Positions 5,559-58,400 of a stretch of DNA of 64,000 nucleotides are shown here, in pieces. The notes beneath the pieces were generated by a model. The model was not told where the DNA came from. It made no database searches and was given only the letters and a program-made list of their open reading frames with translations. Origin of the DNA: Raja brachyura (lineage: Eukaryota); contig OY740804.1 of NCBI GenBank assembly GCA_963514005.1, forward strand, positions 5,766,001 through 5,830,000, in the 5' to 3' direction. The position numbers were made by a program, and so were the translations under genes. The first letter of the stretch is position 1. Each line of letters begins with the position of its first letter.

Positions 5559-5595
5559 ATGTTGGTGCCAATTCTTCTTATTTGTTTCTTGCCCG
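5559..5595 (+). CDS. Gene A signal-peptide exon (MLVPILLICFLP)
   Basis: ATG plus 37 nt, hydrophobic, then G|gtgagt. Same length and phase as the leaders at 24358 and 40442. Confidence 0.8.
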
Positions 5596-14378: not shown

Positions 14379-14517
14379 TGTGTGCAGGGTAGTGTTAATG
14401 TGCGGGGATTGCTGGTCAGTGTGGACTCGGTGAGCCGAATGGCCCATTTCCTCGCTGTACCTCCAAACTGAACTAAACTAAACTAGTTGAAAGTCTATTT
14501 TACTTCGGAGTCACGTG

Positions 14518-24357: not shown

Positions 24358-24394
24358 ATGTGGATTCCCATTCTTCTCATCTCCTCGCTGCGTG
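24358..24394 (+). CDS. Gene B signal-peptide exon ([12 protein letters not shown])
   Basis: 37 nt, G|gtgagt donor, near-identical to 40442-40478. Confidence 0.82.
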
Positions 24395-30300: not shown

Positions 30301-33300
30301 AGTGTCTTAGCCTCCACTGCCCTCTGTGGCAGGTAATTCCATAAATTCACAACTCTCTGGGTGAAAACGTTTTTACTCACCTCAGTCTTAAATGTCCTCC
30401 CCTTTATTCTAAGACTGTAGCCCCTGGTTCTGGACTCACCCAACATTGGGAACATTTTTCCTGCATCTAGCTTGTCCAGTCCTTTTATAATTTTACATGT
30501 TTCTATAAGATATCCCCTCATCCTTCTAAACTCAAGTGAATACCAGCCTAGTTATTCAATCTTTCCTCGTATGACAGTCCCGCCATCTCAGGGATCCATC
30601 TCGTGAACCTACGCTGCACTGCCTCAATCAAAAGGATGTCCTTCCGCATATTAGGAGAGCAAAACTTTACACAATACTCCAGATGTGGTCTAACCAGAGC
30701 CCCATACAACTGCATAAGAACCTCTTTACTCCTATACTGAAATCTTCTTGTTATGATGGCCAACATTCCATTAGATTTCTACACTGCCTGCTGTACCTGT
30801 GAGCCAACCTTCAGTGACCGGTGTGCAAGGACGCCCAGGTCTCGCTACACCTCCCCCTTACCTAACCTAACCCCATTGACGTAATAATCTGCCCCCTTCT
30901 TTTTTGCTGCCAAAGTGGATAACCTCACATTTATCTATATTATACTGACCCTGCCACGCATCTGCCAACTCACTCAACCTGTCCAGGTGACCCTGCAACC
31001 TCCTAACATCCTCTTCACAGTTCACACTGCCACCCAGCTTTCTGTCATCCGCAAACTTGCTAGTGTTGCTCCTAATTCCCTCTTCCAAATCATTAATATA
31101 TATGGTAAACAGTTGCGGCCCCAACACCGAGCCTTGCGGCACTCGCCACAGCCTGCCATTCTGAAAAGGACCCGTTCACTTGTACTCTTTGCTGCCAACC
31201 AATTTTCTATCCATGTCAACACCCTACCCCCAATACCATGTGCTCTAATTTTAGTCATCAGTCTCCCGTGCGGTAGCTTGTCAAAGGCTTTCGGAAAGTC
31301 TAGATACACTACATCCACTGGCACCCCTTCATCAGTTTTACTTGTCACATCCTCAAAACATTCCAGAAGATTAGTCAAGCAGGATTTCCCTTTCATAAAT
31401 CCATGTTGACTTGGACTGATCCTTTTACTGCTATCCAAATGCACCATTGTTACCTCTTTAATAATTGACTCCAGCATCTTTCCCACCACCGAATCACCCA
31501 ATACTATTTCTCATCATATGAAAATTTCTTTTAGTCCCTCTACTCTCTTAGATCCTCTGTCCTCCAGTACATCTGGGAGATTGTTTGTGTCTTCCTTAGT
31601 TAAGACAGATCCGGAGTACCTATTCAACATTCTGCCATTTCTTTTGCCCATAATAATTTCACCCGTGTCTTCCTTCGAAGGACCCACATTTGACTTCGCT
31701 ACTTTTTTCCCTTAACATATTTAAACAAGTTTGTAGTGTCCTTTATATTCCTGGTCAGCTTCCCTTCATACTTCATCTTTCAGCCGGTATTGCCCGTTTT
31801 GTTTCCTTCCCATGAAAGTTTCCCAATCATCTGGCTTCAGGCTACTCTTTGTTGTGTTATACATCTTTTCTTTTAGTTTTATTCTATCCCTAACTTCTCT
31901 TGTAAGCCCCGGTTCGACCATCATTCCCGTTAGGATCCCTTTCCAGTCTACCTTGGCCAGCTGCCCTCTCATGCCTTCATAGTCGCCTTTATTCATCTGT
32001 ATCACTGATAATTCCGAATTAACCTTCTCCTTCTCAAATTGCAGATTAAAATGAATCATATTATGATCACTACCTCCAAGCGGTTCCTTTACATCGAGTT
32101 CTCTTATCAAATCTGGTTCATTGGACAACACTAAATCCAGAATTGCTTAATCTCTGGTCGGCTCCATTACAAGCTGCTCTGAGAATCCATCTCAGAGGCA
32201 TTCTACAAACTCTCTTTCTTCTGGTCGTTAACCAACCTGATTTTCCCAGTCTACCTGCATATTGAAATCCCCCATCACCATAGTGCCATTAGCTTTGTTA
32301 CATGCCAGTTTTAACAATTTTAGTGTCTTCTTGCCTTTACATTTCCTCAACTCAATCCACAGTGACTCTACCTCGTCAGTCCCTATGTCTTCCCTCGCAA
32401 GGGACTGAATTCCATCCCTCACCAGCAGAGAACCCCCCCTCATCTGCCCATCTGCCGGTCATTTCTGTAGGATGTATAACCCTGAATATTAAGTTCCCAG
32501 GCCCGATCCTCCTGCAGCCATGTCTCAGTAATCTCCACAAAGTCATATCTACCAACCTCTAACTGAGCCTCAAGCTCAACTACTTTACTTCTCATATTTC
32601 GCACATTCATATACAATACTTGTAATTCCTTACGCATCTCACCTTTCACATCTATCCCTATTACACTTGGCCATACTCTCCTACCCTTCGTGAGCTTCCT
32701 TTCCTGTTAAATCTGGGGTAATTGACTATCCCTTTACTCTCTTTCCCTTTAACTCCATCCTCGACTATCCCATTTGACACCCTACCCCTCTTATTCAGTT
32801 TTAAAACACCCGTGTAGCAGTGGCAAACCTGCCTGCCAGAATGCTGATCCCCCACCTGTTAAGATGCAATCCGTTCCTTTTGTACATTTCCCTTACTCTG
32901 TCCGTGACATCCTGGATCCTGGCATCAGGAAGGCAGCACACCATCCTCGAACCCCGTCTGTTCCTGCAGAAACCCCTGTCCGTACCTCTCACAATGGAGT
33001 CCCCAACTACAATGGCGTTGCCTGACGTTGGCCTCTTTGGTTTTGGCTCAACAGCCCTCTTTGCTTCGCAAGCCAGTCCGCGCCTCAGTGTGACAATGTC
33101 TTCTGTCCCGACAGCTTCTAAGTGGGTGAACCTGTTCACAAGATGTACAACACCCGGGGACGTTTGCATTCTTTGTTTCCCTCCTTTTCCCACCTTCTCT
33201 CTTCCAGTACCTTAGGTGTAACAATCTTACTGTAGGACCTGGCGAGGAACGACTCAGCTGCTCAGACGAACCTGAGGTCACCCACTTGCTTCTCCAATTC

Positions 33301-36229
33301 CCCAACACGGTCCTTCAGGAGATGTACCTGGATGCACTTCTCACATGTGTGATACATCGTATAATACATTGTATAATACACTCATAATGCCATATCTGAG
33401 TTACTGCGTGGCAATATGTGGTAACACCTACAAAATCAACCGACAGCCGTTATGCACATTACAAAAAAGAGCAAAGAGAATTATCAATAACGTTGGATAT
33501 CTTGAACAACCAATTTATTATTCTTAAAGTCACATACACTGAAGTTCACCGATCCGGTTAAATTTAAGACTGCACAAATCATGTCCAAAGCAAGAAATAA
33601 TTTACTTCCAGGAAATATACAAAAACAGTTTATGGAAAGACAGGGTGGGTATAATTTGAGAGGGGAACATAATTTTAAAAAACTCATTTTTGCTAAATTT
33701 GTATAAGATAATTATAAGCAGTTGAATAAGGGGTGGGAATTAATAAGCTTTAGTTTCTTCCTGCTCCTTTTCGGACACATACGATTTCATTTATTTATAG
33801 ATATTGTTTATGACACTTTATAAATATTTTTGGGGGGTTTTGTATGCTCTTTCACAGTTGCTCTTTATTCTTTTATTCTGTTCGAAATAAAGAATTATTT
33901 TTTATTTAAATCGAGCAAACAGGCTGAGTACACAACGTCCAGTAATCGCCAGTAGACTAGTTCCATGGGGACAATTTACAGAAATGCCCCGTGTGTACAG
34001 GAACCAACAAACTACACGACTTCAGATTGCGGGGGAAACTGGAGCGCTTTGAGAAAACCCACAAGTTCACAGGGAGGAGGTACAAATTCCATACAGACAG
34101 CATCCGTAGTCCGGATCGAACCCGTGCCTCTGGCGCTGTAATGCAGCAACTCTACCGCTGCGCCACCGTCCCGCACTCGCCTGCTTGTCATGATAACAGC
34201 TTCCATTTGCTGCAAATCACACTGAAGAATCATTACCCTGTCTCTTAAGCCTATCAACTCCTTACATCAGACACCCATACTCTCTTGTTCAACTGCAAGT
34301 GAAAAGCAGTGAAACTGACATTTATTTCCTTGTTCCAACAGGTCATGAATATTCTTCTGATAATTCGATAACATCCAATTACTCTGCAAGGTAAACCGCT
34401 CTGTTCCAATGAAAGTTACAATGTACTAATAGCCGGTGTTTTGATTGGGAATGATTTAATTGGGAGATAGTTGAACCTTCCTTTCGCTGGCATTGAATGT
34501 CACGAGAGTATTGATCTGAATGCACAGTGACACAGCCTGCGGAATCACAGCCTCACAACGCACGACCCTGGTTCATTAGGTGCTGCCTGTTTATGGTCTG
34601 CATGTTTTCCCTTTCATTGTGTTGGTTTAATTTAAGTGCTCCAGTTTCCTCCCAGCTCCTAAATATGTGCCAGTTGTAAATTGCCCCGTGTGTACAGGAA
34701 AACGGTTGAATCTGTGGATATAAGAACGTTAATACCGCCGATATGAGCGAACCTCTAACCAAAATTTCGAACACGATTCCTCCATCCACACAGCTACCGC
34801 GTCAATCCAAGTAATATCGAGGATGTGATATTAAATATTATCATTTTAAATTTAGTTCATTAATTGGCCTCATCTGTTTCCATATTTATTGCCCCATCTG
34901 CTTTCCACCATTAGAATTGATCCTTTTTAATTATTCCTCTCTATTCATATGGATTTTATTATAATCTTCCTTCAGCTGCATTTTCATTCTTCCAGGGTAT
35001 TACACTATTCTTTGTATCCTTACTCATCCCCGGTTTCCCGCTCCCGTGACTCCCAGTCTGAAGAATAGTCTAAACCCGAAACTTCCCGCATTCCTTCTCT
35101 CCAGAGATGCTGCCTCTACCGCTCAGTTTCTCCAGCATTTTGTGTCTATCTACTCTGTATTCGCTGTGTTTCACTGCTCCATCTCGAGTCTTATTTCCCT
35201 GTCTTCTCCGAATCCATTTAACCGTGTAATTTCTCATTCCCAGTCTTGTAGCCATGCTCCAGCTATGAGGTCAGTAATTGGTGATCATAAGTTGTTGTGT
35301 CCCCCCCCCCCAGTTCAACACCCGTTCTTTCTCCCACCTGATCTCCATTGACGCTGCTGCTTCGCCCCGCTCCACCTCACCAAGATTATGAAGCAAATAA
35401 CAGGTAAATGTTTCAAAGATAAACCGTCTCGTTTCCTCCCATTGATTCTGTATCTCTTGCCCTTTGCCCAGTTACATCGCATGGAAAGTGGGGCGCTGGC
35501 TGTTCTTCCTCCTGCTTGTGATCTGCAGTATCTCAACCGCGGTGCTCACAAGAGGCTCTAAGGTAGGTTTGATTGTCATCGTGTTCGTAAATTATATGAG
35601 CAGAATTGGGTCATTGAGCCCATCATATCTAATCCGCCCCCAATCACGGCTGATCTACCCTTCCCTCTCGATCCCATTCTCCTGCCTTCTCCCCATAACC
35701 CTTGACATCCTTATTTATCAAGAAGATGAAAATCTCCGACTTAAAAATATCAATTGATTTGGATAGATACAAAAATGCTGAAGTAGCTCGGCGGGGCGGG
35801 CAGCATCTCCGCTGTGAATTGACCTTGCCTCCACAGCCTCTTGTGGTAATGAAATCCGTAAATTCACCACCCTCTGACCAAAGCAATCGCTTCTCATCGC
35901 CGAATGTTTCGAAACGGTTTCCATTAATGCTTTCGAATATCCTGTCCATTGATAGAAACAAAAACCGTGCACGTTTTCATACCCTGGAGTTTAAGCAAAC
36001 GTCTATGTGGATGATATCACGAGGTTCTGTCATGTTGTACGTGTGCAGCGTGGAATTCTGTGCCCGGTGTGGATTCTGTAGGGACTATCTTCCAGACAGC
36101 AGTGTGTTGGGAGTGGTCGTGTCAAATAAAGCGTGGTTCCCACTGTCAGTGAGCCTGATGACTTCACATTATCTTTTGCAGAGACGCGATGAGTCAGAAC
36201 CTCGCCACTCGGCCCACGAATTACAATGA
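24358..36229 (+). CDS. Gene B: CD300/pIgR-like (MDIR-type) Ig receptor, leader-V-C2-stalk-TM-short tail, 288 aa, activating-type
   Basis: Exons 24358-24394, 26623-26943, 28974-29294, 34342-34390, 35472-35562, 36182-36229. Exon sizes and phases are identical to gene A. AATAAA at 36616-36621. An in-frame upstream ATG lies at 24346. Confidence 0.85.
25471..26328 (-). mobile_element. CR1 LINE fragment in gene B intron 1
   Basis: RT motifs in ORFs 26002-26319 and 25679-25978. The empty site is visible in the paralog at about 41875. Confidence 0.9.
26623..26943 (+). CDS. Gene B Ig V-set exon
   Basis: ORF 26634-26963: [24 protein letters not shown]. gtacgt donor. Confidence 0.9.
28101..28753 (-). 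mobile_element. Second copy of the non-autonomous GC-rich retro-element
   Basis: Reverse complement of 37350-38114 with a shorter internal array. Empty site at about 54170. Confidence 0.7.
28974..29294 (+). CDS. Gene B Ig C2-type exon
   Basis: ORF 28859-29302: [24 protein letters not shown]. cag acceptor, gtaagt donor. Confidence 0.9.
30121..33345 (-). mobile_element. Long degenerate CR1 LINE (ORF1 SGNH-esterase remnant, endonuclease, RT)
   Basis: [16 protein letters not shown] at 32801-33193, ITETWL/GDFN/GSDH endonuclease motifs, RT motifs, (ATAGAAAC) tail at 30121. Confidence 0.92.
33346..33910 (+). mobile_element. L2-group (Crack/Daphne-like) LINE 3' fragment
   Basis: [29 protein letters not shown], followed by a 3'UTR ending in AATAAA. 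Confidence 0.65.
34342..34390 (+). CDS. Gene B stalk exon ([16 protein letters not shown])
   Basis: Paralog of 10522-10570 with the same splice sites. Confidence 0.8.
35472..35562 (+). CDS. Gene B transmembrane exon ([31 protein letters not shown])
   Basis: Paralog of 12022-12112. cag acceptor, gtaggt donor. Confidence 0.85.
36182..36229 (+). CDS. Gene B terminal coding exon ([15 protein letters not shown])
   Basis: Paralog of 12716-12763. Confidence 0.72.
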   Translation, partial: RRDESEPRHSAHELQ

Positions 36230-38114: not shown

Positions 38115-40441
38115 ATATTTCGCTTGGGCAGCTTACACCCCAACCGTGTGAACATTGACTTCACTAACTTCAAGTAACCCGTGCTTTCCCTGTCAATCCA
38201 CCCCCCCCCCCCCCCCCCCCCTTTCCCAGTTCTCGGATCAGTCTGATAGTCTCCGATTACATTTTATCTCGAATTGCTTTGTTGTCCCTTCTCCCAGCTA
38301 ACAATGATCTACATGTTCCTTGACCTCCATCCCCTTTGTCCCGTTTCCAAACCACGGATCCTTATCCAAGTATCTCCCTCTCCCCTGACTTCAGTCTGAA
38401 GAAAGGTCTTGACCCGAAACGTCACCCCTTCCTTTCATCCATAAATGCTGCGTGTCCCGCTGAGTTACTCCAGCATGTTGTACAACAATATGTTTTTGAA
38501 CAATATGTGATTGAAAGATACAGTATGGATACAGACCATTTGGCCCACGAGTCCACGTCAACCAGCAAGCAACCCTTTCACACTAATTCTATGTTACCCC
38601 ACTTTCGCGTCTTTTCAGTACCGTAATATAGATAAACATTTTAATGCTGCAACGAGTTATTCATTTTGTCTACCGTAAAAATGAGTTAAAGGACAAAAAT
38701 AAAGGCCACGGTGGCGCAACGGTCGAGCTGCTGCCGTACAGCGCTTGCAGCGGCGGGGACCCGGGTTCGATGTGTACGGAGTTTGTACGTTCTCCCCGTG
38801 ATCACATGGGGTTTCTTCGAGATTTTCCGCCTCCTCCCACACTCGAAAGAGGAACAGTTATGTATGTTAATTGGCTTGCTATTAATGAAAATTGTCCCCA
38901 GTGTGTGTGCAGTAGTGTGGCTTCGCCGCTGGCACTTTGCTCGCGCTGCTGCAACAAGGGTGTGTAGATTCGTATCTCTGAACCGCATCTTGCGAGCAGC
39001 TCGGAGTAACACTGTTTGCTGAACAGTGTTTGCAGAAGTCATGGGTCAATGGCGAATGGAGATAGAATTAAATTGCTTTGGTGCATCGTCGGGTCCTCTC
39101 TGCAGTATTTTTAGTTGGGCAAGTAAACAGCAAATAGCTCCTAACAAAAGATCCTTCACAGAGGGCCGTCAACGCTCATCTAACATCAGTGGCGGACACA
39201 TCAGTGTGTTACACAGATACCACGTGATGCACAACATTGCCACAGATGTACACAACCCGAATAAACAGCACTGTTCCCCTGAAAGTAACACACCCAGAGC
39301 GATAGCCCGCTGCAGATATTAGGTTATATTATAATGCAACTATTTGCCGACAGATTGAAATGAATCGATGCAAGCAGATGCAAAAAGTCAGCAACTGACA
39401 TGTACATGAACACAAATCTGATAATTTATTAGTTCTGTATTGCAATGAAGACAAGTTAACAATTCAATTCACCGTGCATATTCTACCTTGCTTTAACTTC
39501 ACTAAGTGTATCACTTCGCCCTTGTTTGAGTTACATTCCACATCCCGCTTTCCCAGCTGATCTCCATCCTGTGGTAATTCTAGACAAACTTCTTCATAGC
39601 CCACTACACCATCAATTATCATTTTCAAAACGTGAATAGCATAACAATCGTGTTTGAAAGTTTGTATTAAAGAGTTGAAGCAGAGAGGAGAGGGTCAAAC
39701 TACAATTAACCTCAGCTGATTTCAGGTGAAAAGCCCGTAATTCCTAACGCTAGCTTCCTGTTTTGCCCCTTGTCGCCAGTAATATATCAAAAGATAAGTT
39801 CCAATAATTATATTTTTGATCTGTCGGTCCACTTACAAAATCAACAAGAGGAAATTATCCAAAGTGTACACATCTTAGACGTTTCTACTCTTCTAAATGT
39901 CATATTTTATCCAATGTATCATTGGTTACAAGAAGGGTCCCGATCCGAAATATCACCTATCCATTTTAGTTCTAGTTCTAACATTTTTTCCACCCCTGTT
40001 CAGTGTTAATAGACTCTGAGTACAGAGATAATCGCCGCTCCATCCTAACGGATACATTATACTGGCGAAGTGATTGAAGCAGCTACAATAACAACATGTA
40101 AGGAGCAATTGGACAGGTCCATGTATGGGGAAGGTTTGGGGAGTTTGGGGTTGAACGCGCGCAAATATGACTAACTTAGATGAGCATATTGATCTAACGC
40201 GTTGAGGAGAAGGGCCTGTTCCGTGACGTATGATTCTGTGATAATCTGACCCGACCATTTGTTAAATATAACCCTGAGCCTTTCACACTGTAACGTGTCG
40301 AGCTGCTGTTGGCTCGCTGTTCAGCATCTGACGTCCTGTTCCCTTCTTCCTCATTGCTATTTGAGAGATGCGGCTGTATCTGAGAGCTCAGAGCTGAGCG
40401 ACAGACAGACAAGTGCTGGCGTCGTCACTGTGGACAAAACA

Positions 40442-40478
40442 ATGTGGATTCCCATTCTTCTCATCTCCTCGCTGCCCG
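40442..40478 (+). CDS. Gene C signal-peptide exon ([12 protein letters not shown])
   Basis: 37 nt, G|gtgagt donor. Confidence 0.85.
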
Positions 40479-43400
40479 GTGAGTGAAAGCCAGATCCTCA
40501 TATTCCAATGATCAATGTTATTTGGGGTCCCATGCACCCTTTCCACAGCAGAGATAGTTAAGTATGTGCAGAAATGGGTGAGATGCAACTCAGTGCGTTG
40601 TGGTGATGGATCTGAAATCACATTTGAATATCTAGACTATGTTCCTAGTTTAACCACTGTTGACACGTGGTCTAATTACATCCCGATTATAGTTTATAGG
40701 CATAAAATCGCAAATAAATTTGGAGCAGATACTCCAAGATACCTGGACCGAAGGACAGAAGATGTAACATCACCAGGAAGTTAATTCTACACTTTTAAAA
40801 TGTGTTTACAAGAGACGGGGGAGTCGGGATTGTGGACTCATTGTGACAGTTCAAATATTCCCTGCATTTGTCCAATTCAACTCTGTCGCAAACCCAACAA
40901 TTCCCCCGAGTCTGAGACTGAACCACTGTCCACGCTCCATCCACCTACCCCCAACTCTCTCTCCATCCTCACTCGGATCCGCGGCCTAGTCGTGAAATTC
41001 AAGTTCAGTTTATTGTCACGTGTACCGAGGTACAGTGAAAAGCTTTCTGTTACGTGCTAACCAGCCAGATACATGATTACAATCGATCCTCTCGCAGCGC
41101 ATAGATACATGAAAGGGATATAAAGAGTAGTGTAAGGTAAAGCCAGCAAAGTCCGATCAAGGGTAGTCCGAGGGTCACCAAATAGTTCGATCGTTCAGCA
41201 CTGCTCTCTGCATGTGGTAGGATGATTCCGATGCCTGATAACAGCTGGGAAGAAACTGTCCCCGAATCTGGCGGTGTGTGTTTTCGCGCTAGTAACGCTC
41301 TCCGGTAATGGACCCGCTTTATTGTAACTCGTTCGTCCTCTGTGTCCTCAGTCAGGGCGTTGTAAAGGCAGTGACGGCGGTGAATGTCTAAACACGGGTC
41401 CGGCTTTCCGCGCCCGGGTGGGACTAGAGAAGGACCAGGCGCTGTCCACGGGCACCTGGGGGATTTCCGGGACATCTGGGCACCGCCTGGGGTTGAATAC
41501 ATCCATGACAAGTATTGTAACATAGTTGTATAGTAGTTTATAGACTGGGGGAATATAAATGGTCGGCACGACTGGAAGGGCCGAGAAGGCCTGTTTCCGT
41601 GCTGTAATTGTTATATGGTTATATGGTTTATTTAGTATATTTGTTTGTCGTATTATGGTGGTGGGTTCTGTTTTGTTTTATTGTATTGTAAATATTCTTT
41701 TTAATAATTGAATAAATTATATGATAATTTAAAAAAATACACGGGTCCGGCCCAGTGCGGGTTGAGAGATGAATATTCGCAGCGCAGCCGGCGGCACCGC
41801 CAGTAAAGTAGCAAAGTGGGGTATTTCTGTCGGGTGAGAGGCCGGGCACCGCCTGGGATTGTTGAAAGGCAGCTCTTGCAACACTGCCGCGCTCCCTCAG
41901 TACCGCACTGCGATCCCAGCCCAGTTTCTGCTCAGGGATCTAGAGTGGGAAGTGAACCCGCATTCTACTGACCCGGGGACAGAACACTGACACAACTGGT
42001 ACAATAACAGCACTGCCTGCACTTCAGACCGGAGACATTGGCCGAGAAGCAATATGACACATTATGGAACGTTTTAAGTTTTCTTTCATGTAATCTTCAA
42101 AATGTATCTATTACCATTAAACAGTTAATTTGCTCTCCATCTGAAAGTTTCTCCGCTCAGTTGTAGGTGCAGTGTGGGCTAAGTGGGATGCAAGAGGAGT
42201 TGTTGGAAGAACGATCACAATCGATTGCCACTATGCAGCAGAGTACCGCTCACACACAAAATACTGGTGCCGTGGGAGGAGTCGACCGTGTAGAGTTTTA
42301 GTGGAAACTAATGGGCAACACGGACGGAGTGGAAGAGTGTCAATCACAGATAACCCGGCACTAAGAATATTTACTGTGACTGTGGAAGATCTTCACTCTG
42401 GAGATACGGGATGGTACAGCTGTGGGATTACAACATCTGCCGACCACCCAATATTTAACGTTTATCTCGAAGTATCTGACGGTAGGTTTAGCAGCGAATG
42501 ACGAGGTCTCTGGCAGAAAGATAATACATGATTACAATCGATCCTCTTACAGTGCATAGATACATGAAAAGGAAATTACGTTTAGTGTAAGGCAAAGCCA
42601 GCAAAGTCCGATTAAGGGTAGTCCGAGGGTCATCAAAGAGGCAGATAGGAGTTCAGCATTGCTCTCTGGATGTGGTAGGATGATTCAGATGCCTGATAAC
42701 AGCTGTGAAAAAATTGTTCCAGAATCTGGCGGTGTGCGTTTTCACGCTAGTAACGCTCTCCGGTAAGGGACATGGAAGCGGGTGGTGAGTGGGCGAGTGG
42801 TGAGTGGGTGAGTGGTTGGGTGAGTGGGCAGATGCATGGCAGATGAAGTTTAATGTGGATAAATGTGAGGTTATCCACTTCAGTAGCAAAAGCAGGAAGG
42901 AAGATTATTATCTGAATGTTGTCAGGTTGGGAAAAGGGGAAGTACAAAGAGATCTGGGGGTCCTTGTTCATCACTCACTGAAAGTAAGCATGCAGCTGCA
43001 GCAGGCAGTGAAGAAAGCCAGTGGCGTGTTGACCTTAATAACAAGAGGAGTTGAGTACGGGAAACAAAGCGATCCTTCTCCAGTTGTACATGGCCCGAGT
43101 GAGACCACACCTGGATTATTGTGTGCAGTTTTCAACTCCAAATTTGAGGAAGGGCCTTCCTCAAGGGCGGGACTGTCATATGTCGATTGAATGGAGCGGG
43201 TGCTTGTATACTCTGGAATTTAGAAGGATGAGATGCGATCTTATTAAAACATATAAGATTATTAAGGGATTGGACACGTTAGAGGCAGGAAACATTTTCA
43301 CGATATTGGGTGAGTCCGGAACCAGAGGCCATAGTTTAAGAATAATGGATAGGCCATTTAGAACGGAGATGAGGAAAAACTTTTTCACCCAGAGGGTTGT

Positions 43401-46400
43401 TCATCTGTGGAATTCAAAAGAAAGAATCATGCTGATGCATTCAAAAGAAGGATAGGTAGAGCTCTTTGGGCTAGCGGAATGAAGGGATATGGGGAAAGGC
43501 AGGAACGGGGTACTGATTTTGGATGATCAGTCATGATCACATTGAATGGCGGTGCTGGCTCGAAGGGCTGAATAGCCTACTGCACATATTGTCTATGTAT
43601 CTATGTATGTATCTACAGTTCCTTGTGTCTCCACCTCATCATATGGAAAAGCAAGGTCAATCAAAACTTGAGCAAGAGAACATTATACCCGTGAGAGTAA
43701 CTGGACGCAGTGGTTTCCTCGTGGTTGTTTTCGGATGTTACTTGTGTATTTGAAGTGAACCCTGCTGATGTTAACGACTCACGAATAGATTTAGGTTCTG
43801 TTGAGATAAAGAAATAAAAGACAATTAAAGATAGACAAAACACGCTGGATTAACTCCGCGAGACAGGCAACATATCTGGAGAGAAGGAATGGGTAATGTT
43901 TCGGGTCTGAGGATGGGACTCGACCCGAAACGTCATAGAGAGAGAGAGTTAGATGGAGCTCTTAAAGATAACGGCGCTAGGGGATATGGTGAGAAGGTAG
44001 GAACGGGTTACAGATTGTGAATGATCTGCCATGATCATAGTGAATGTCGGTGCTGGCTCGAAGGGCCCAATGGCTTACTCCTGCACCAATCTATTGACCC
44101 GCTTTATTGCAACCCGTCCGTCCTCTGTTCTCAGTCAGGGCGTTGTAAAAGCAGTGGCGGCGGTGAATGTCTGAACACGGGTCCGGCCCAGTGTCGGTTG
44201 ACAGATGAACGATGGCAGCGCAGCCGGCCGCACCGCCAATAAAATAGCAAAGTGGGGTCTTTCTGTAGGGTGAGAGGCCGGGCACCGCCTGGGATTGTTG
44301 AAAGGCAGCTCCTGCAAAACTGCCGTGATCCCTCCGTACCGCACTGCGATCCCAGCCCAGTTTCTGCTCAGGGATCTGGAGTGGGAAGTGAACCCTAGTT
44401 GTACTGAACCGGGGACAAAACACTGACACAACTGGTACAATAATAGCACTGCCTGCATTTCAGATCGGCGACATTGACCGTGAAGCAATATGACATATCA
44501 TGGAACGATTTAAGTTTTCTTGCATGGAACCATATAACCATATAACCATATTACAATTATAGCACGGAAACAGGCCTTCTCGGCCCTTCCAGTCCATGCC
44601 GACAATTTATGTTCCCCTAGTCCCATCTACCCGCACTCAGACCATACCCCTCCATTCCCTTCCCGTCCATATACCTATCCACTTTACTTTTAAATGTTAA
44701 AATCGATCCTGCCTCCACCACTTCTGCAGGAAGATCATTCCACACAGCCACCACTCTCTGAGTAAAGAAGTTCCCCCTCATGTTACCCCTACACTTATGT
44801 CCCTTAATTCTCATGTCATGCCCTCTTGTTTGAATCTTTCCTACCGTCAATGGAAAAAGCTTATCCACGTCAACTATGTCTATCCCTTTCATCATTTTAA
44901 AGACCTCAATCAAGTCCCCCCTTAACCTGACCCGAAACGTCGCCTATCTCCTTCGCTCCTTAGATGGTGCTGCACCCGCTGAGTTTCTCTAGCTTTTTGT
45001 GTAACCCTCCACCCTTAACCTTCTGCGCTCCAAAGAATAAAGACCTAACTTGTTCAACCTTTCTCTGTAACTTAGTTGCTGGAACGCAGGCAACATTCTA
45101 GTAAATCTCCTCTCTACTCTCTCTATTTTGTTGACATCCTTCCTATAATTAGGCGACCAAAATTGTACACCATACTCCAGAATTGGTCTTACCAATACAT
45201 TGTACAATTTTAACATTATTTCCCTACTCCCATATATTCAATGGTCTGATTTATAAAGGCCCGTAATGTGATGTTCAAAATGTTTCTATTTCCATTAAAC
45301 AGTTCATTTGCCCTCCATCTGAAAGATTTTCTCCTCCATTGCAGGTGTAGTGTGGGGAGAGACGCATGTAAGAGGAGTTGTGGGAAGAGCGATCACAATC
45401 GATTGTCACTATGCAGCAGAGTATCGCTCACACACAAAATACTGGTGCCGTGTGCGGAGTCGCCAATGTACAGATATGGTGGAAACAAATGGGCAACACG
45501 GACGGAGTGGAAGAGTGTCAATCACACATAACCCGGCACGAGGAATATTTACTGTGACTGTGGTGGATTTTCACTCTGGAGATACAGGATGGTACAGGTG
45601 TGGAATTGCAACATTTAATGGCCGTCCAATGATAAACGTCGAACTCGAAGTATCTGACGGTATGTTTCGCAGCGATTGACTTGTCGTCTCCACTGAAATG
45701 CCTGATCCATGTTTTCTCCGGGAAGGGTCAGGGCAGAACCGATATCCCGAGGCTCCGCAGCAGTGCAGAGACCTGCGGGGAGCGGGCGGGGGTCCGGAAA
45801 CCCCACTCATTCTGCTCTCACCCAGTGCGGGATCTTCCCCACTGAGCGGCCACCCACTTAGAAACATGGAATCATAGAACATACGTGCAGTAGGAGGCCA
45901 TTCGGCCCTTCGAGCCACCACCGCCATTCATTGCGATCATGGCTGACCGTCCCCAATCAATAACCCGTGCCTGCCTTCTCCCCATATCCCTTGATTCCAC
46001 TAGCCCCTGGTGGTCTATCTGACTCCCTTTTAAATCCATCCAGTGATTTGGCCTCCACTGCCCTCTGTGGCAGGGAATTCCACATGTTCACAACTCTCTG
46101 GGTGAAGACGTTTTTTCTCACCTCAGTCTTAAATGGCCTCCCCTTTATTCTAAGACTGTGGCCACTGGTTCTGGACTCGTCCAACATTGGGAACATTTTT
46201 CCTGCATCTAGTTTGTCCAGTCCTTTTATAATTTTATATGTTTCTATAAGATTTCCCCCTCATCCTTCTGAACTCCAGTGAATACAAGCCTAGTCTTTTC
46301 AATCTTACCTCATAAGAGAGTCGTGCCATCCCAGGGATCAATCTCATGAACCTACGCTGCACTGCCTCAATCACAAGGATGTAATTCCTCAAATTACACC

Positions 46401-49400
46401 AAAATTGTACGCAATACTCCAGATGTGGTCTTATCAGAGCCCTATACAACTGCAGAAGAACCTCTCTACTCCTATACTGAAATTATCTTGTTATGAAGGC
46501 CAACATTCCATTAGCTTTCTTCACTGCCTACTGTACTTCCACGCCAACTTTCAGTATCCGGTGTACAAGGACACCCAGGTCTCGCTGTGCCTAACCCCGT
46601 TGAGATAATAATCTACCCCCTTGTTTTTGCCACCAAAGTGGATAACCTCACAATATCTATATTATACTACATCTGCCACGCATCTGCCCACTCACTCAAC
46701 CTGTCCAGGTCACCCTCCAACCTCCTAACATCCTCTTCACAGTTCACACTTCCACCCCGTTTTGTGTCATCCTCAAACTTGCTAGTGTCGTTCCTAATTC
46801 CCTCTTCCAATTCATTAATATATATGGTAAACAGTTGCGGCCCCAACACCGAGCCTTGCGGCACTTCACTCGCCACTGCCTGCCAATCTGAAAAGGACCC
46901 GTGCACTCCTACTTTTTGCTTCCTGTCTGCCAACCACTTTTCTATCCATGTCAACACCCTACCCCCAATACCATGCGCTTTAATTTTAGTCACCAGAATC
47001 CCGTGCGGTTCCTTATCAAAGGCTTTCTGAAAGGCTAGATCCACTACATCCACTGGCACCCCTTCATCCATTTTACTTGTCACATCCTCAAAAAAATCCA
47101 GAAGACATCAAGCATGATTTTCCGTTCATAAAACCATGCTGACTTGGACTAATCCTTTTACTGCTATCCAAATGCCCCATTATTATCTCTTTATTGATTG
47201 ACTCCAGCATCTTTTCCACCACCGAAGCCAGGCTAACAGGTCTGTAATTCCCCGTTTTCTCTCTCGCTCCTTATTTGAAAAGTGGAATTTTTCACTTTCG
47301 TTTCACTTTTCACTTCAAGTGGGACGCTCAGCACATTTCCATTCCTCCGAACTGTATGAAATTTCACCCTGTCAGAAGTTTGCATTCCGACTCAAACTAA
47401 TAATCCGACAGTGAGAAACAAGAATACCCCGAGAGTTTTAAAAAAATCAATTCCAGAGCTCAACAGACTACGATCAGTCCTTCCGTGATAGGCCATCCCG
47501 CTTCCCACCCCCACCTCAGGGATCAGTCACTCCCTCCCAAACCCCGGGCTCTCTCTCTCTCTCCGCCTGTCCCGTCAATGTGCCCCCACCCCCAGCAGCC
47601 ACTATCCACCCACCGCCCGGCAGCCAGCCAGCCTCTCCACCCGGACTTTTCCCCGGTGGTAAGCAGAATAAACCCATCTTTCACCCCATCGGCCGTCGCA
47701 CACAGCAGACAAACCTCCAACATGTTCGCCACCTCCAACGGGATCCCACAACTAGTCACATCTTTCCATCTCCACCGCTTTCTGCTTTCCGAAGAGACCG
47801 TTCCTTCCGTAACTTCCTGGTCAACTCGTCCATCCCTCCCCCCCCCCCCCCCCCCCCCCCGACCACACACCCAAAAAAACCCATCCCCTCCTCAGGTACA
47901 TCCCCCGACAACTGCAGGAGATAGATCACCTGTCTGTATACCTCCTTCCTCTACTCCGTCCAAGGACTCCAACAATCTTTTCGGGAGAGGGTTCACTTGC
48001 ATCTCATCCAAGCTCGCCTACTACATCCGCTGTTCCAGGTGTGAACTACTATATATCGGCGGAACCAAGCGCAGACTCGGCGATCGTTTCGCTGAATAAC
48101 TCCGCTCAGTCAGCCTCGGCCTACGCTACTTCCCGATTGCTGAACACTGTAATTGCCCCTCCTATTCCCAAACGCACCTTACTGTCCTGGACCTCATCCA
48201 CTGTATGCCTCGTTGTCACTTTCCCTTCAGTCGACAATGATTCATTCTACATTTTCTTTTCACCTTTGATCACTTGTTTTCACACCTTGCCTTTCCATTT
48301 ATCTTCTGTCTCCCGGCCCATGACTCTCAGGCTGAAGAAGGGTCTCGACCCGAAACGTCACCCATTCATTCCTTCGATAGATTCTGCCTGCTCCGTTGCG
48401 TTACTCCAGCATTTTGTTTATATCTTAAACGGATCGTAAGTAGAGCAGAGATGGTTAAGTGTGTGCATGCGTATAATGGGGGAAATGGAACTCAGTGCAT
48501 TGTGGTGATGGATCTGAAATCACATTTGAACATCTAGGCAGTGTTCGTAGTTTAACCACTGTTGACACATGGTCTAATTGCACCCTGATGATAGTTGATC
48601 GGCATAAAATAGGGAATGAATTTGGAGCAGATACTCCAAGACTCCTGGTCCGAAGGAGAGAGGTTCGAACGTCATCAGGAAGTTAATTCTACACTTTTAA
48701 AATATGTTTACAACTGAGGTGGAAGTCAGGATTGTGGACTCATGATGGCAGTTCAAACATTCCCTGCATTGTCCAACTCAACTATGTCGCAAACCCAACA
48801 ATTGAGACTGAACCACTGTCCTTGCTCTCTCCACCCACCCCCAACTCTCTCTCCATCCGCTCTCCGATCCGCGGACCAGTCGTGCAGAATTGTGAAGGGC
48901 GAGCCGGGGTCATTGGGAATAGAACCTGTCCATGATAAGCAGCGGAACATTGGGCTCCCAATTCAGTTTAGTTTATTGTCACGTGTACCGAGGTACAGTG
49001 AAAAGCTTTTATGTTGCGTACTAAGCAGAAAGACAATACATGATTACAATCGATCCTCGTACAGTGCATAGATACATGAAAAGGAAATAACGTTTAGTGT
49101 AAGGTAAAGCCAGCAAAGTCCGATGAAGGGTAGTCCGAGGGTCATCAAAGGTGTAGATAGGAGTTCAGCACCACTCTTTGGATGTGTTAGGATGATTCAG
49201 ATGCCTGATAACAGCTGGGGAAAAACTGTCCCCGAATCTGGCGGTGTGCAGCTCCTGCAACATTGCCGCGCTCCCTCAGCCCATAACTGCGATCCCAGCC
49301 CAGTTTCTGCTGAGGGATCTGGACTGGGAAGTGAAGCGATTTGTACTGACCCAGGGACAGAACTCTGACACAACTGGTACAATAACAGCGCTGTCTGCAC

Positions 49401-52400
49401 TTCAGACCAGAGACATTGTTCATGAAGCAATATGACACATCATGGAACGATTTAGGTTTTCTTGCAAGTAATCTTCAAAATGTACCCATTTTCCATTAAA
49501 CAGTTCATTTGCTCTCCATCTGAAAGTTTTCCCCCTCCATTTCAGTTGCAGTGTGGGGAGAGAGTAATGTAACAGGAGTTGTGGGAAGAGCGATCACAAT
49601 CGATTGTCACTATGCACCAGAGTACCGCTCACACACAAAATACTGGTGCCGTGGGAGAAGTCGCCAATGTACAGATATGGTGGAAACAAATGGGCAACAC
49701 GGACGGAGTGGAAGAGTGTCAATCACAGATATACAGGCACTAAGAATATTTGGTGTGCGTGTGGAAGACCTTCACTCTGGAGATACAGGATGGTACAGCT
49801 GTGGGATTACAACATCTGCCGACCATTCAATGTTCCACGTATATCTCCAAGTATCTGATGGTACGTTTCGCAGCGATTGACGACGTCGCCACTGAAATAA
49901 TCCTCCGACATTTTCGCAACCTACAACGGAATCCCACAAGTAGCCACATCTTTCCATCTCCACCGCTTTCTGCTTTCCGAAGAGACAGTTCCCTCCGCAA
50001 TTCCCTGGTCAATTCGCTCTTTCCCACCCAAACCACCCCGTCCCCAGGTACCTTCCCCTTCAACTACAGGAGATACAACACCTGTCCCTATATCACTCCC
50101 ATCTACTCCGTCCAAGGGTCTCAACAGTCTTTTCGGGCGAGGCAGAGGGTCACTTGCATCTCCTCCAACATCATCTACTATGTCTGCTGTTCCAGGTGTG
50201 AACAAGCGGATGTAGTAGATGGGAGACCAAGCGCAGACTGGGCGATCCTTTCGCTGAACAACTCCGCTCACTCTGCCTCGGCCTTCGCCACTTCCCGATT
50301 GCTAAACACTTTTATTCCCCCTCTCATTCTTAAACTGATCTTTCTGTCCTGGACCTCCTCCAGTGTCAGAGTGAGGCCAAAGGCAAATTGTAGGAACAGC
50401 GCCTCATATTTCGCGTGGGCAGCTTACAACCCAGCGGTTTGAATATTGACTTCTCTAACTTCAGTAACCCTTGCTTTACTCCTGTCTCCATCCCGCCCCC
50501 AACCGAAGCCTCCAATTCGTTTCACTGGCTTCCTGATTATATTTTACTGAGTGTCTGCCTCGGCGTCACCTTCCCTTCAGCTGACAATGATCCATTCTAC
50601 ATTTTCCTTTAACATTGTCACCTTTGATCACTTGTTTTAACACCTTACCCTTCCATTTCTCTTCTGTCACCCCGAACATGACTGTCAGGCTGAAGAAATG
50701 TCTCGACCCGAAACTTCCCCCATTCATTCTCTCGAGAGATGTTGCCTGCTCCGCTGTGTTACTCCAGCATGTTGTGCCTATCCTAAAGGGATCGTGATTA
50801 GTTTTCGCGTTTAAATTTCAAAGCATTGGATAGGGTTATTGGCACGCTAGTCTTCATCAGTGAGAACATTCAGAACCTAATTTGCTTCAGATGTGCAGAT
50901 GTTGAGTCCACACTTTGGGAATTGTGTTCAGCTTTCGTCCCTCAGCTCCATGAAAACTGCCTTTGAGGTGGACGACATTGCCTGGACAGGATGGGATTGA
51001 CGCAGGGAGCGATTGGACAAACTCAGACTACATTCCTGGGTGTGGAAATGATTGAACGAGGAACTTACGGAAATGTATCAATCATGTGAAGCATATTCAT
51101 TTTCCCACGATGTGTGGAATCAAAAAGTGGAGGACAGATGCAATGGGAACTATTTAAAGAGGGGGTAATAGTACGGAGCCATTGACTGTAATGGCATGTT
51201 TTGCACAGATCAGTGACCGAAGCTGAACACAATTCGCCCAAGTTCGAACTCAATCACATAGGTACAACTGAAACAAAACATCCCAACTTATGTTCTGAGG
51301 GACAACATTTTCCACACATTGGGTAATATGCACATGGAACCTGTTGCCAGGGGGAAGTTGGTGAGGCACTAAGAATAACAGCATTTAAGATAAATGTTGG
51401 ATATTTGCATAGATTGGGATCATTGCGAGTGATAAATGAGAAACGCGGATATATGAAAATGCCCTCGAGAGACATGTTGGTCGGCATGAATGAGCTGTTG
51501 CGACGGGCATCTTTCGGTTCTCTATAACTCTAACCTTCTTCGGTTTCTGGGCTTCGCACACTCACAGAGATGTAGATGAGCCGATGAAATATCAACCGGA
51601 GGGTTCGGGCTGAGATAAAGGGCTGCTGAGATTTAGCATGTGTTTGGTTTTTAACTGTTCATACAGGTGACTGAATGTTTGTTCCATTCCCACAGAACCC
51701 GTGTCTGCTCCTGTGCTCAGATATCTGTCACCAGCAAATACCTCACGTCTCGGAGGCTCAGTGTCAGTGTCGTGTGAGTCTGTCCGTGGATCCCTTCCCA
51801 TCCAATACACATGGTTTGAGAAGAACGAGCATTGGGTTTCAACGATCTTGAAAAGCAAGCAACTGGATCTGAGTTGTGAAATCCTCAGAGGTGAACACCT
51901 TCAATATTACTGCACAGCCGCAAATAATCGTGGGACAAAATCCAGTGAAATAGTCAAGGTGAAAGTCTTCAAAGGAGCAGGAACGTGCAGTTATGTGACT
52001 GAAATGAACAATGCAGGTGAGTGTCCCTCTCGTGCCCCTGAACCTGCTGCTATTCACCTTGTGGCGATGTTTGTGGATTTCTTGTTATTTGCAGACGGCA
52101 TCATTGCAGCCACCGTGAGCTCATGGTGTAAAATGCGAGAGTTTGTTTGGGGGACTGGCAAATAATTGCCTGTTGCTTTCACCTGGGAGGTGTTGAGCTT
52201 CGAAAGGAGAGAAAGGCCTGCACTTATCACAACGAGTTGAGTGCATTCCATCAAAGTTCTGCCTTCTGCGTTAAAAATGATTTTCTGGCTGCCGCTTAAG
52301 GTCTCAGTCACTTTGAGACAGAGAAGGCAACCAACTTGATTCTGTTTGGATCCACCATCATTTACATCCAAGGATGTACAATTTCATGATCATGTTCATG

Positions 52401-55400
52401 ATTTTAACTCTGTTAATTGGTGTTAAACTCCAGTAATCTCACAAAATTAAAGTGGTATCTCCTTGACCGTCACTCCATCAAGAATAACCCTTACTTATGT
52501 CAAAGATAATTTTGAAATGAAACCCCATCCTCAACCTCCCCCGTTGATGCAGAGCAGCAGCAGTTAGCACCATCTGCACTATGCAATGCAGCAACTCACC
52601 AAGATTCGCAAGACATTCCCTTCCAATTGCAACAGGCTCCGTGTTCAATGCATCATTCTTCACCATTCACACCCTCATTGGCTGGGAAGCGCTTTGGAAT
52701 GACCTGTGTAGATGGTGAGGGACGGTGTACAGTATCTGTCTCTCATCGCAATCTAAGTGGATTTCAACAGTTAAAAACATCATTAGGCGAACTCCCCTAT
52801 GCACATTGATGCGTACTATAATGCACATATTTGTGAAAGGTTCATTTTGCTCTTCACTTTATGAAAGATTTCCCCTTCAGTTTCAGGAGCACTGTGGGCA
52901 GAGAGCGAAGTAAGCGGGGTTGTGGGAAGAGCGATCTCAATCGATTGTCACTATGCAGCAGTGTACCGCTCACACACAAAATACTGGTGCCCTGGGACAA
53001 GTCGCCAGTGTACGCATGTAGTGGAAACAAATGGGAAACATGGACAGAGCGGAAGGGTGTCAATCACAGATAACCCGGCACGAGGAATATTTACTGTGAC
53101 TGTGGAGGATCTTCACTCTGGTGATACAGGATGGTACAGCTGTGGAATTACTACACCTGGCGAACCAACATTTAATGTACATCTCCAAGTATCTGAAGGT
53201 AGGTTTCTCAGTGAGTGACTTCATGTCTCGACTTTGGCATCTGCATAAAACATATGTTGGGTCACATATGGGAGTCTGGCGCACAGTTCTGGTCGCTGCT
53301 TTATAAAACAAATGATGTGAAAGGTTTGGAGAAGTTGCAGAAAAGGTTCACCGGGATATTTAGTTGTAGTTTACAAATGTAACATGGAAACGGATCCTTC
53401 GGTCCACCGAGTCCGCACCGACTAGCGATCACTGGTCACACTAGTTCTATGTTATTCCACTTTCCCATTCGCTCACTGCACACAAATTTACAATACCGCC
53501 ATTCACACACCTCATTAGTGCCACATTATCACTATCAACAATTCTATACAAGGAAATAAAAAAGTTGTTGATAGTGATACTGTTGCACTAATGAGGTGTT
53601 TGAATGTTGGTATTGTAGAATTATGGCAGAGTTTCAGATTAAAAGAAGAACTGCAGATGCTGGAATTGCAAAACAAAGAGAGATGGTGCTGCTGTGTACT
53701 GGTACAGTGGCAGACATGGTTGTTCGGCAGCTGGGAGGATGGAGAGACACTGAGATGTTCAAATCTGGTAAATTGTGAGGAGAAGGAGCAGAGAAGACTT
53801 ACAAGGATGTTCCGATGACTTGAGGGCCTGACATACAGAGAGGGTTTAAGCGGATTAGGACTTTATTTCTTGGAGCACAGGAGGATGAGGGATGATCTTA
53901 CGGCAGGTAAAAAATCATGCGAGGAATAAATCGATTAAACACACAGAGTCTTTTGCCCAGAGTAGGGGAATCGAGAACCGGAGGACAAAGTTTTAATATG
54001 AGGGGGGAATGATTTGACAGGAACCTGGGGAGTAACGTTTTTACACAAAGGTTGGTAGGTACATGAAATGAACTGTCGACAGAAGTAGTTATGGCAGGTA
54101 CTATCGTAACATTTACGAAAATATTGGACAGGTACCCGAATAGGATATGTTTAGATGGTTAAGGGCCAAGAAAGGGCAGGTGGAACTAGTGTAGTTTGGG
54201 CGTGTTGGTCAGCGTGGGCAAGTTAGACCGAAGGGCCTGTTTCTACGCTGTATGACTCTATGATTCTATGTAGATGGATGGGTCAGATTCCAACCTGGCG
54301 GCTCTGGCTAAGATATGGTGGATATTGGCGAGTGTTTGATTTTCAGATGTTCGCCCAGTGTCTGACTGTTTGCTCCATTCCGACAGAACCCGTGTCTGTT
54401 CCTGTGCTTGGATTCCTTTCACCAGTCAATGACTCCTGTCTCGGGGGCTCAGTGACAGTGTCCTGTGAGTCGGTCAGTGGATCACTTCCAATTAGCTACA
54501 CCTGGTATGAAAATACCCCATCTGGGGATTCAAATATCTCAGATCAAAATGCTCTGGATCTACATTGTCAATCCTTCAAACACCAGCACCATCAATATTA
54601 CTGCACAGCCTCCAATAATAATGGAACAAAATCCAGTGAAATGGTCAATGTGTCCATCTCCAGCAGTGGTATGTCCTGTAGTTTTCTAGTGAAAACCAAC
54701 GGCACTGGTAAGTAGTGGAGGGAAAGAGGAGAAGAAGGGGAAGTGGGGGTGGGGCGGTTTATCAGATCACAATTGATAGAAGCAGAAATAGACCATTCAA
54801 TTATGACTGATCTATCGTCCCCTCTTCATCCCACTCTCCTGTCTTCTCCACATAACCCCGACACCCTGAAATCCATGCACATTCTTTAATGAACTTATCA
54901 ATATTAAAATTATGGATTATTGCCCATCTGTCAATACTTGGTTGCTGGGCTCCAGGAATAGTTTCCCCAGTGCTGGTGAAGGGCAGATTCCTGGCTAGAA
55001 CTTCCTCTTATATTTACACAATTTTAAGCTAATTTTGCAGTGACATCAGTCCAAGCACTTTCACTTTCCCGCCATCATCTCCACATGACCGACACTCAAA
55101 TATGGGAAGGGAACAGAAATTATCCGTAAATGGAGCCACAGTTAAATCCTCGAGGACTGTGTCAGTTTTGGTCCAATGTGATAATGTTGACCATTAAGTA
55201 CCATAGATACTAATCCCATTTACCAGCACCCCACCCACAGTCTTCTCAGACTTGACAATTCAAGTGTCTTCACCATCTAGCTTTTAAAAATTTTCGTTGC
55301 TCAGATACCCTCTAAATATTCTACTCCTTAACCCAACCCTATGTTCTCCACATCTATGCACATCTGCTGTGCTGATTTCCCACAAAGTACCCTATCTATG

Positions 55401-58400
55401 TTCCTAATAGCTTTACACACCTGTAATAGGTTCCCCCTTCATTTCCTGTGTGGATTAAAATCCCCATCTGTGCAGCCTCTCCTTCGAACTGTAATATTTC
55501 ATCCCAGGCACTATCCCTCGCATGCAATCACATCCTTTAGTTCAGTTTAGACATCCAGCGTGGAAGCAGCTGCCTTTAACTAGTTCCATCCTACTAGTTC
55601 CATCCTACTCACTAGGGACAATTTACAGAAGGCAATTAACCTAAAAACCTGCATGTCTTTAGAATGTGGGAGAAACCCGGACCACTTGAATAAAACCCAC
55701 CAAGTCACATGGAGAACATACAAACTCCATGCAGACAGTACCCGTAGTCAGGATTGAACTCGGGTCTCCTGTGCTGTACGACAGCAGCTCAACAGCTGGG
55801 CCACTGTGCCGCCTTTCTGTTGGCGATCTGAGTCGTAACCAGTGGTCCAGCTTATCATGACAACATCTCCCATTTGCTGCAAATTACACTGAACAAACAT
55901 TGCCCTGTCAATTAAAGCTATAAACTCCTTATATCGGACAAACATGCTCTCTTGTTCAACTGCAAGTGAAAAGCAGTGAAACTAATTTTTATTTCCTTGT
56001 TCCAACAGGACTTGAATATTCTTGTGAAACTTCGAAAAACCCAAATTATTCTTCAAGGTAAACTACTCTGCTTCCAATGAAAGGTGCCATCTACTAATTG
56101 CTGGTGTTTTGATTGGGGTTGCTTAAATTGGGAGAAAGTTGTGCTTCAATTGGGAGACAGTTGTGTCTTCCGTTCACTGGCATTAAAGGCCCTTGACAGT
56201 ATTGGTCTGAATGCACAGTGATACAGCCAGTGGAGCCACAGCCTAACAATGCCAAGACCCTGAACTTGTCGATGTGCCATCTATGTGTGTTCTGCAAATT
56301 TCGCCTTTCATTGTGTTGGAAGGAACTGCAAATGCTGGTTTAAACTGAATATAGGCACAAAAAACTGAGTCACTCGGCGGGTCAGACAGAACCTTTGGAG
56401 AAAAGGGATAGGTGACGTTTTGGGTAGAGACCCTTCTTCAGAGTGAGAGTAGGGGGAAAGGGAAACGAGAGCGATATCGATGGTGATATAGAAAGGTATA
56501 AAACATTGAATGATAAATATGCAACAAAAGTCACTATGATGAATGAAACGATTCATTGTTAGCTGTGGGCTAGGTGAAAACGAGTTGTATGGACAATGAG
56601 ACATTACAAGACAACAGTGCCATTTGTACAATGACTAGGGTGGCGGAGGGACGGTGAGAGAGGGGATGCAAGGGTTATTTGAAGTTATAGAAATCAATAT
56701 TTATACCGTTTGACTGTAAGATGCCCAAGCAAAATATGTGGTGCTGTTCCTTCAATTTCCATTTGGCCTCACTCTGGCAATGGAGAAAGTCCAGAATAGA
56801 ACAGTCAGTGTGGGAATGGGAGGGGTATTTAAATAGTTTAGCAACTGGGAGATCATATAGTCCCAGGCAGACTGAGCGTATCCGTTCAGTAAAACGATTG
56901 TCCAGTCAACGTTTGGTCTTGCTGATGTATACGAGTCCACACCTGATCCAATAGATGAGGTTTGAGGCGGTTCAAATGAATTCTGCCGTACCTCAAATGA
57001 CTGTTGAGTTCCTTGGACTGTCGAGGGAGGAGTTATAGGGACAGACTGATTCCTGGGATGTCAGGACTTTCATATGAAGAAAGACTTGATAGACTCGGCT
57101 TGTACTCACTGGAATTTAGAAGATTGAGGGGTGATCTTATAGAAACTTACAAAATTCTTAAGGGGTTGGACAAGGTAGATGCAGGAAGATTGTTCCCGAT
57201 GTTGGCGGAGTCCAGAACAAGGGGTCGAAGGGCCGAATGGCCTACTCCTGTACCTATTTTTCCATGTTTCTATGTTTCTATTTCCTGCAGTTGAACGGGA
57301 AGGTACCTGGGGAGAGGGTGGTTTGGATACGTAAGGATGAGATCACCAGGGAGGTATAGGTCATAAGGCCATAAGGGATAGGAGTAGAATTGGGGCATTC
57401 AACAGGGAACGGTCTCCTGCACACGACCTGGCATTCAAATGAATTTGGGCCATCTCCAAAACATCCCTCCACTTTCTCGATCACACTGTCTCCATCACAG
57501 GAGATAGGCTATCAGTGGATGTCTATTATAAACTGACTGACTCCCACAACTATCTCGACCACACTTCTTCTCACAGGATTTGTGTAAATGTGGTTGATGG
57601 TCAGCGCAGATCTGAAGGGCCAAATGGCCTGTTTCCATACTGTGTCTCTCTATGGATCCTACGAGGCCAAATATCAGAAAATATAACCAATGCTTTTCCA
57701 TGTGTTTCAAGCCTGACACCGAAAGATAAATTTATCTCCTAAATATTCTTCTACACAAGAGTTTAGAAGAATGAGGAGGGACCTCATTCAGACACGCATA
57801 ATAGTGAAAGGCTAGGATAGAATGAATGTGGAGAGGGTGTTTCCACCAGTGGGAGTGTCTAGGATTAGAGGACGTAGCCTCAGACTTAGATGTTCTTTTT
57901 AGGAAGGAGAATATCTTCAGTTCAAGGGTGGTGAATCTGTGGAATTATTTGTCACAGAATGCTGTGAAGGCCAAGTCAGTGTATACACTTAAGGCAGAGA
58001 TAGATAGATTATTCTTTCATACAGGTGTTGGACGTTCTGAGGAGAGGGCAGGAAATGGGGTTAGGTGGGAGAGAATGCTCAGTCAGGATTGTATGGCGGA
58101 GTAGACTTGATGAGCCGATTGGCCTAATTCTGCTCCTATTCCTTATGATCTTATTCTATAATAATATGTATATAACTTGCAACCCAGATATTAGTTAACT
58201 CATCAGAAAGGGAATTGAACTTGTTTACATCTCATTGTATGGTGTATATGCTAGGGTTATCAGAACAGGATCCTTCATTTGTTGCCATTCATAGCCAATA
58301 CGGGCTGAAAAGATGGCCAGGAATATAAAGAAGGACAGTAAAAGCTTATTTAGATATGTTAAGGGGAAAAGCATAGCAAAATCAGATGTGGGCCCCTTGA

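Follow-up and report, generated by a model that had tools for sequence, protein, structure and literature searches.

A likely six-Ig receptor gene of the skate MDIR family with three tandem V exons behind one leader

Gene C of Raja brachyura appears to be an intact gene of the MDIR3 type, and its exons are likely spliced serially to give a six-Ig membrane receptor (V-V-V-C2-V-C2) that is predicted to be inhibitory; minor shorter isoforms are probably generated by ordinary in-frame skipping. The gene lies in a window of 64,000 nt, the whole stretch of DNA that was analysed (assembly GCA_963514005.1, contig OY740804.1, positions 5,766,001 to 5,830,000). A sequence-only reading had proposed either a six-Ig receptor or one leader that chooses among alternative V cassettes. 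The first of these alternatives fits all the evidence, comprising the open frame of 802 amino acids, the match to MDIR3 and the family context.

All exons of gene C are located on the forward strand. The coding part of the leader exon (window positions 40442–40478), which contains the start of the signal peptide and ends in a phase-1 donor, encodes an N-terminus that matches MDIR3 and MDIR5. In most paralogs two in-frame start codons are found four codons apart (window region 40430–40444); the first is lost in gene C, the second in genes E and Z. The leader is followed by V1 (42161–42481, 321 nt; Pfam V-set, 4.6e-12), which has tandem acceptors before 42161 and 42167, by V2 (45345–45659, 315 nt) and by V3 (49546–49860, 315 nt). 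All three V exons are open, in phase 1-1 and bounded by AG and GT. As had been claimed before, V2 and V3 have lost the upstream acceptor, with CA in the place of V1's upstream AG, and the claim of open, phase 1-1 exons was verified for V1–V3 and for the whole joined gene. The remaining exons were found beyond the region covered by the sequence-only reading: C2a (51696–52016, C2/I-type Ig), the fourth V exon V4 (52881–53198), a leaderless internal V exon typical of the V-C2-V-C2 genes of the family, C2b (54387–54707), the stalk exon (56009–56057), the transmembrane exon (61425–61513), whose span has no charged residue, and two tail exons. The first cytoplasmic exon is at 63510–63556; the last exon, with two ITIM-like motifs and one ITSM-like motif, starts at 63974 and extends past the end of the window (63974–64000) to OY740804.1 position 5830249. 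An in-frame stop is present within 6 codons past each V donor. Soluble forms produced by read-through were considered and rejected: although these stops are present, neither AATAAA nor ATTAAA occurs within 300 nt after the V donors.

Joining all exons resulted in a protein of 802 amino acids with zero internal stops and the domain order V-V-V-C2-V-C2. The predicted product has a membrane span free of charged residues, and its tail contains three tyrosine motifs, named according to the ITIM/ITSM consensus. MDIR2, MDIR3 and MDIR5 of the clearnose skate came up in a protein search, and the nearest named proteins were from skates and rays. Identity to MDIR3 extended over 560 of 695 aligned residues (80.6%); V3 showed 70–72% identity to MDIR3 and MDIR5, and 67% to MDIR2. 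Pfam assigned V-set to four of the six domains and Ig_2, Ig_3 or C17orf99-type to the other two, and the V domains match structures of pIgR and CD300 (PDB). In PMC3031540, MDIRs are described as related to CD300, TREM, FCAR and pIgR. Sequence similarity places gene C in the skate MDIR family, which is CD300/pIgR-like.

The related proteins show how V domains are arranged in this family. MDIR3 (ABC86797.1) has the order leader-V-V-C2-V-C2, with two V domains joined directly. Adjacent V domains were present in 33 of 132 related database proteins, nearly all of them genome-based gene models; MDIR3, reportedly cloned as cDNA, is the only one of these V-V relatives that is not a genome-based model. 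The original MDIR study is said to have described a family with one to six Ig domains. For a stingray gene with three V exons seven model isoforms were available, and four of these include V1, V2 and V3 in series, two skip V3, and the remaining one joins a different leader and V to V3. None of the seven joins the main leader to V2 or V3, and none skips the first V. The downstream acceptor is used by one stingray model isoform. In a serially spliced receptor the extra V domains would extend the reach and provide more, or broader, contacts with ligand, and signalling would proceed via the tail tyrosines.

Self-BLAST of the window was the basis for the alignment of intron copies. The earlier claim that intron 1 restarts shortly after V1 and leads to V2 was borne out, with the restart at about 42513. 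The partial copy before V2 (42513–45344) consists of three pieces (42513–42771, 44093–44529 and 45266–45344) split by inserted repeats, and is covered by the pairs 41069–41313 versus 42524–42771 (87.5% identity), 41308–41404 versus 44093–44187 (89.7%), 41739–42093 versus 44175–44529 (90.1%) and 42088–42502 versus 45266–45680 (85.3%). V2 is followed by post-V sequence of the intron-2 type (45660–48443) with a LINE-like insertion at 45856–47288; this sequence is homologous to the intron after V3 up to 50801. A second copy of intron 1, which had been proposed to start at about 40547 and to lead to V3, was confirmed at 48444–49545 (40547–40994 versus 48444–48884, 83.7%; 40996–41278 versus 48960–49248, 86.2%; 41869–42508 versus 49248–49887, 86.9%).

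Two junctions result from this arrangement. Junction 1 (about 42513) is located about 30 nt past the V1 donor and is common to the paralogs D and E. At junction 2 (48443/48444) post-V sequence meets intron-1 position 40547, with a microhomology of just a few bases. A leader-like sequence was sought between V1 and V3 and was absent. The first restarted piece belongs to a repeat dispersed throughout the genome, for which 40 of 2099 first-look candidates were scored. Among these 40, the best matches (93–95%) were the intron-1 copies of the cluster, and the piece continues into intron-1 sequence; the full junction 1 was confined, within these 40, to gene C and two of its paralogs. An artefact due to collapsed repeats is unlikely, because the V exons are just 86–88% identical and carry different insertions between them.

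The leader was indeed left behind, as the sequence-only reading stated, with no leader between V1 and V3; its view that intron 1 plus V was duplicated within the gene fared less well. A tree built from 42 V exons placed the V1 exons of C, D and E apart from V2 and V3, and V1, V2 and V3 fell into different clades. V2 is 92.4% identical to g4980_V1 and 85.7% to V1. AU tests rejected none of the constrained groupings (V1+V2+V3, p 0.07; V1+V2, 0.06; V2+V3, 0.26; V1+V3, 0.16). The intron copies show no greater closeness to gene C's own intron 1 than to intron 1 of other genes, and the intron trees were largely unresolved. An Amblyraja model contains a V1-like (96%) followed by a V2-like (85–88%) domain and misses V3, and V3-like domains are found in other Amblyraja and Leucoraja models. 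We therefore somewhat favour an origin of V2 and V3 by fusion between neighbouring paralogs over duplication inside gene C, since V1–V3 are not sisters, the introns are not closest to the gene's own intron 1, and V3-like exons occur in other genera. On the other hand, a 2-nt deletion past the donor, which two other genes also have, is common to V1 and V3, and so are four rare bases within the exon; duplication or gene conversion would account for these shared features. The gain of V2 and V3 would be due to non-homologous recombination, with post-V sequence becoming linked to a position in intron 1. As all Ig exons are in phase 1-1, any such join would instantly be in frame, and modules may therefore have been repeatedly gained and lost in the cluster.

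Of 71 matches to V1, 44 were close V exons lying in a stretch of about 1 Mb on the contig, and the 600 kb around the window that were analysed take in 42 of these. We defined 29 units by their leaders, among them four with the order V-V-V-C2-V-C2 (genes C, D, E and Z) and six with V-C2-V-C2. Like skate MDIR genes, those at this locus are numerous, clustered and variable in their number of domains. The leaderless internal V4 exons formed their own clade of 10 within the cluster. Paralog D is intact and also open for 802 amino acids; among the four three-V genes, E and Z have frameshifts in C2b. The junctions of gene C were also found in D and E, and those of Z differ. Thus two paralogs (D, E) share the three-V layout, which appears to have arisen independently in the third (Z). 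Gene Z (OY740804.1 5729611–5756304) has its three-V front by other junctions and a frameshifting deletion in C2b. Gene g5709 (OY740804.1 5709519–5714878) carries the post-V/intron-1 junction located between V2 and V3 of Z, with the second V exon missing, which points to module loss after duplication.

Several further observations were made in the cluster. Paralog E (OY740804.1 5874072–5891379) combines the ectodomain of gene C with a short tail of the MDIR5 type and basic residues near the membrane span, and is paired-receptor-like. The 1-nt frameshift in its C2b could mean a pseudogene or an assembly error, and the idea that gene E is an activating partner of gene C was dropped in view of this frameshift. 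D and E have the same V2 sequence but different V1 exons (OY740804.1 5838660–5882399), and V3 to C2a of C and D are more than 99% alike; this patchy likeness may reflect gene conversion or partial haplotype duplication. Upstream of gene C, genes A and B (window 5553–12760 and 24358–36226) have the order leader-V-C2-stalk and short tails of the MDIR5 type. Interleaved with the cluster, at OY740804.1 4.82–5.47 Mb, are further V-like exons that form a second group and are more distant (31–39% identity to V1). Long open reading frames on the minus strand (window 14503–18513) are endonuclease/RT and ORF1-like and presumably belong to a LINE-1-like element.

The three V exon pairs aligned without a gap, against 10 gap events in the introns (1609 aligned bases). 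The dN/dS values among the V1–V3 pairs were 0.62, 0.52 and 0.96, and were lower in framework than in variable positions, a comparison that is partly circular as the positions were defined post hoc. Framework dN/dS was 0.74 for V2 and 0.59 for V3 versus 0.46 for leader-adjacent pairs, and this counts against the serial reading. The pattern of gaps and dN/dS fits maintained, diversifying domains, a fit that is weak for V2.

Instead of a largely serial product, gene C may yield through substantial unregulated skipping a mix with one to three front V exons and a sizeable share of leader-V2 and leader-V3 joins, which we regard as unlikely. Nothing in the frame prevents skipping, since all 8 subsets of V1–V3 are in frame and open, and the pyrimidine content of the acceptors is alike in V1–V3 (0.60–0.70). 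V1 is flanked by inverted repeats in gene C only (92%, 87 nt) and V2 in genes C, D and E (69–75%, about 860 nt), and these repeats could favour skipping; such inverted pairs were, however, no commoner around exons of V runs (4 of 12) than around other V exons (6 of 25) or C2 and stalk exons (7 of 30). The stingray models argue in both directions, as V3 is left out in two of the seven while the first V is always retained. A leader-V2 product could still be secreted, given that 10 of 62 leader-adjacent V domains of relatives lack the two residues encoded after the upstream acceptor.

Loss of this acceptor, which shortens the product by two residues, was seen in 6 of 23 leader-adjacent V exons, in 7 of 9 V exons that follow a V (a set that includes g5029_V2, probably with an undetected leader) and in 0 of 10 that follow a C2. 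With C, D and E counted once, the ratio was 3 of 4 versus 6 of 21 (Fisher p 0.12). The idea that losing this acceptor marks an internal V exon was rejected in view of the 6 leader-adjacent exons. It decides nothing between series and cassette, because it also occurs in leader-adjacent exons and in relatives.

Mutually exclusive cassettes, in which the leader picks V1, V2 or V3 so that gene C yields three four-Ig receptors, are very improbable. Each V exon retains an acceptor context of the first-exon type derived from intron 1, the loops differ among V1–V3, and single-V forms would have the common V-C2-V-C2 layout of the family (6 of 29 leader-defined units). Against this, the introns between V1 and V2 (2863 nt) and between V2 and V3 (3886 nt) rule out steric exclusion, double inclusion carries zero frame penalty, and V domains stand in series in MDIR3 and other relatives. 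Pairing of the post-leader intron with the regions before V1, V2 and V3 was no better than for shuffled sequences: a candidate docking region (40479–40700) gave −64.9, −63.4 and −65.9 kcal/mol versus shuffle means of −71.3, −65.0 and −69.3 kcal/mol, a result that applies to this one region, short or differently placed docking sites being outside its reach. The region before V4 did pair better than shuffles (−90.5 versus −77.0, sd 7.0). Six inverted matches were present in the span, none of them a selector shared by V1–V3. In Dscam1, mutually exclusive, tandem duplicated Ig-coding exons occur in one gene. Gene C also has tandem similar Ig exons; they are, however, symmetric whole-domain exons separated by long introns, and docking/selector pairing was not found. 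A choice by the leader, possibly made per cell, with the inverted repeats looping out V1 or V2, is just as hard to credit. The literature searched, outside of which most subscription papers fell, contained no V-cassette splicing in the MDIR family, and only PMC3031540 named MDIRs. The second of the earlier alternatives is thus left unsupported, as no enforcing feature was found and relatives show serial V domains.

A further reading, to which we give little credence, holds V2 and V3 to be passengers, recent or degenerating copies left out of most transcripts, or the whole gene to be silent. It would accord with the C2b frameshifts of E and Z and with a dN/dS of about 2 for V2 against its closest outside relative (on 3.5 synonymous changes). 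Against it, both exons have open frames and intact splice sites in genes C, D and E, open V2-like and V3-like domains exist in other skate genera, and the V exon pairs are free of gaps. A search of sequencing runs with V3 brought up no RNA run, a result that has no bearing on expression.

The preferred reading, a serially spliced six-Ig receptor, has its closest counterpart in MDIR3 of the clearnose skate. Both have a leader, V domains including tandem leaderless ones, a C2-V-C2 block, a stalk, an uncharged span and a tail with three tyrosines, but MDIR3 has two front V domains and gene C three. The two V domains of MDIR3 are 87% alike, and V stacking looks independent in the two genes, because both MDIR3 domains are nearest other cluster exons (best match g5002_V1). 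The Cx6C motif, which bioRxiv 10.1101/2022.04.21.489081 gives for the CD300, pIgR and TREM families of V-set receptors, is also present in the V domains of gene C. pIgR has five V domains in series, whereas C2-type domains are interspersed in gene C. According to that preprint, zebrafish NILTs are clustered, non-rearranging receptors; they have 1, 2, 4 or 6 Ig domains, the order of which varies, and many of them carry ITIMs. They are a separate teleost family with a similar modularity of 1–6 domains, without the V-C2 pairing of the gene C cluster.

Cassette choice, if true, would make gene C an unusual case of a vertebrate innate receptor diversified by splicing: a single skate innate receptor gene would provide alternative ligand-binding tips in a Dscam-like manner, built from captured paralog exons. 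Most likely, gene C adds to the MDIRs a member that exceeds MDIR3 by one V domain at the front. The joins that build such "modular" receptors are visible at base level, with three different leader-dropping joins in one cluster, and the same cluster also displays one later module loss and paralogous spread.
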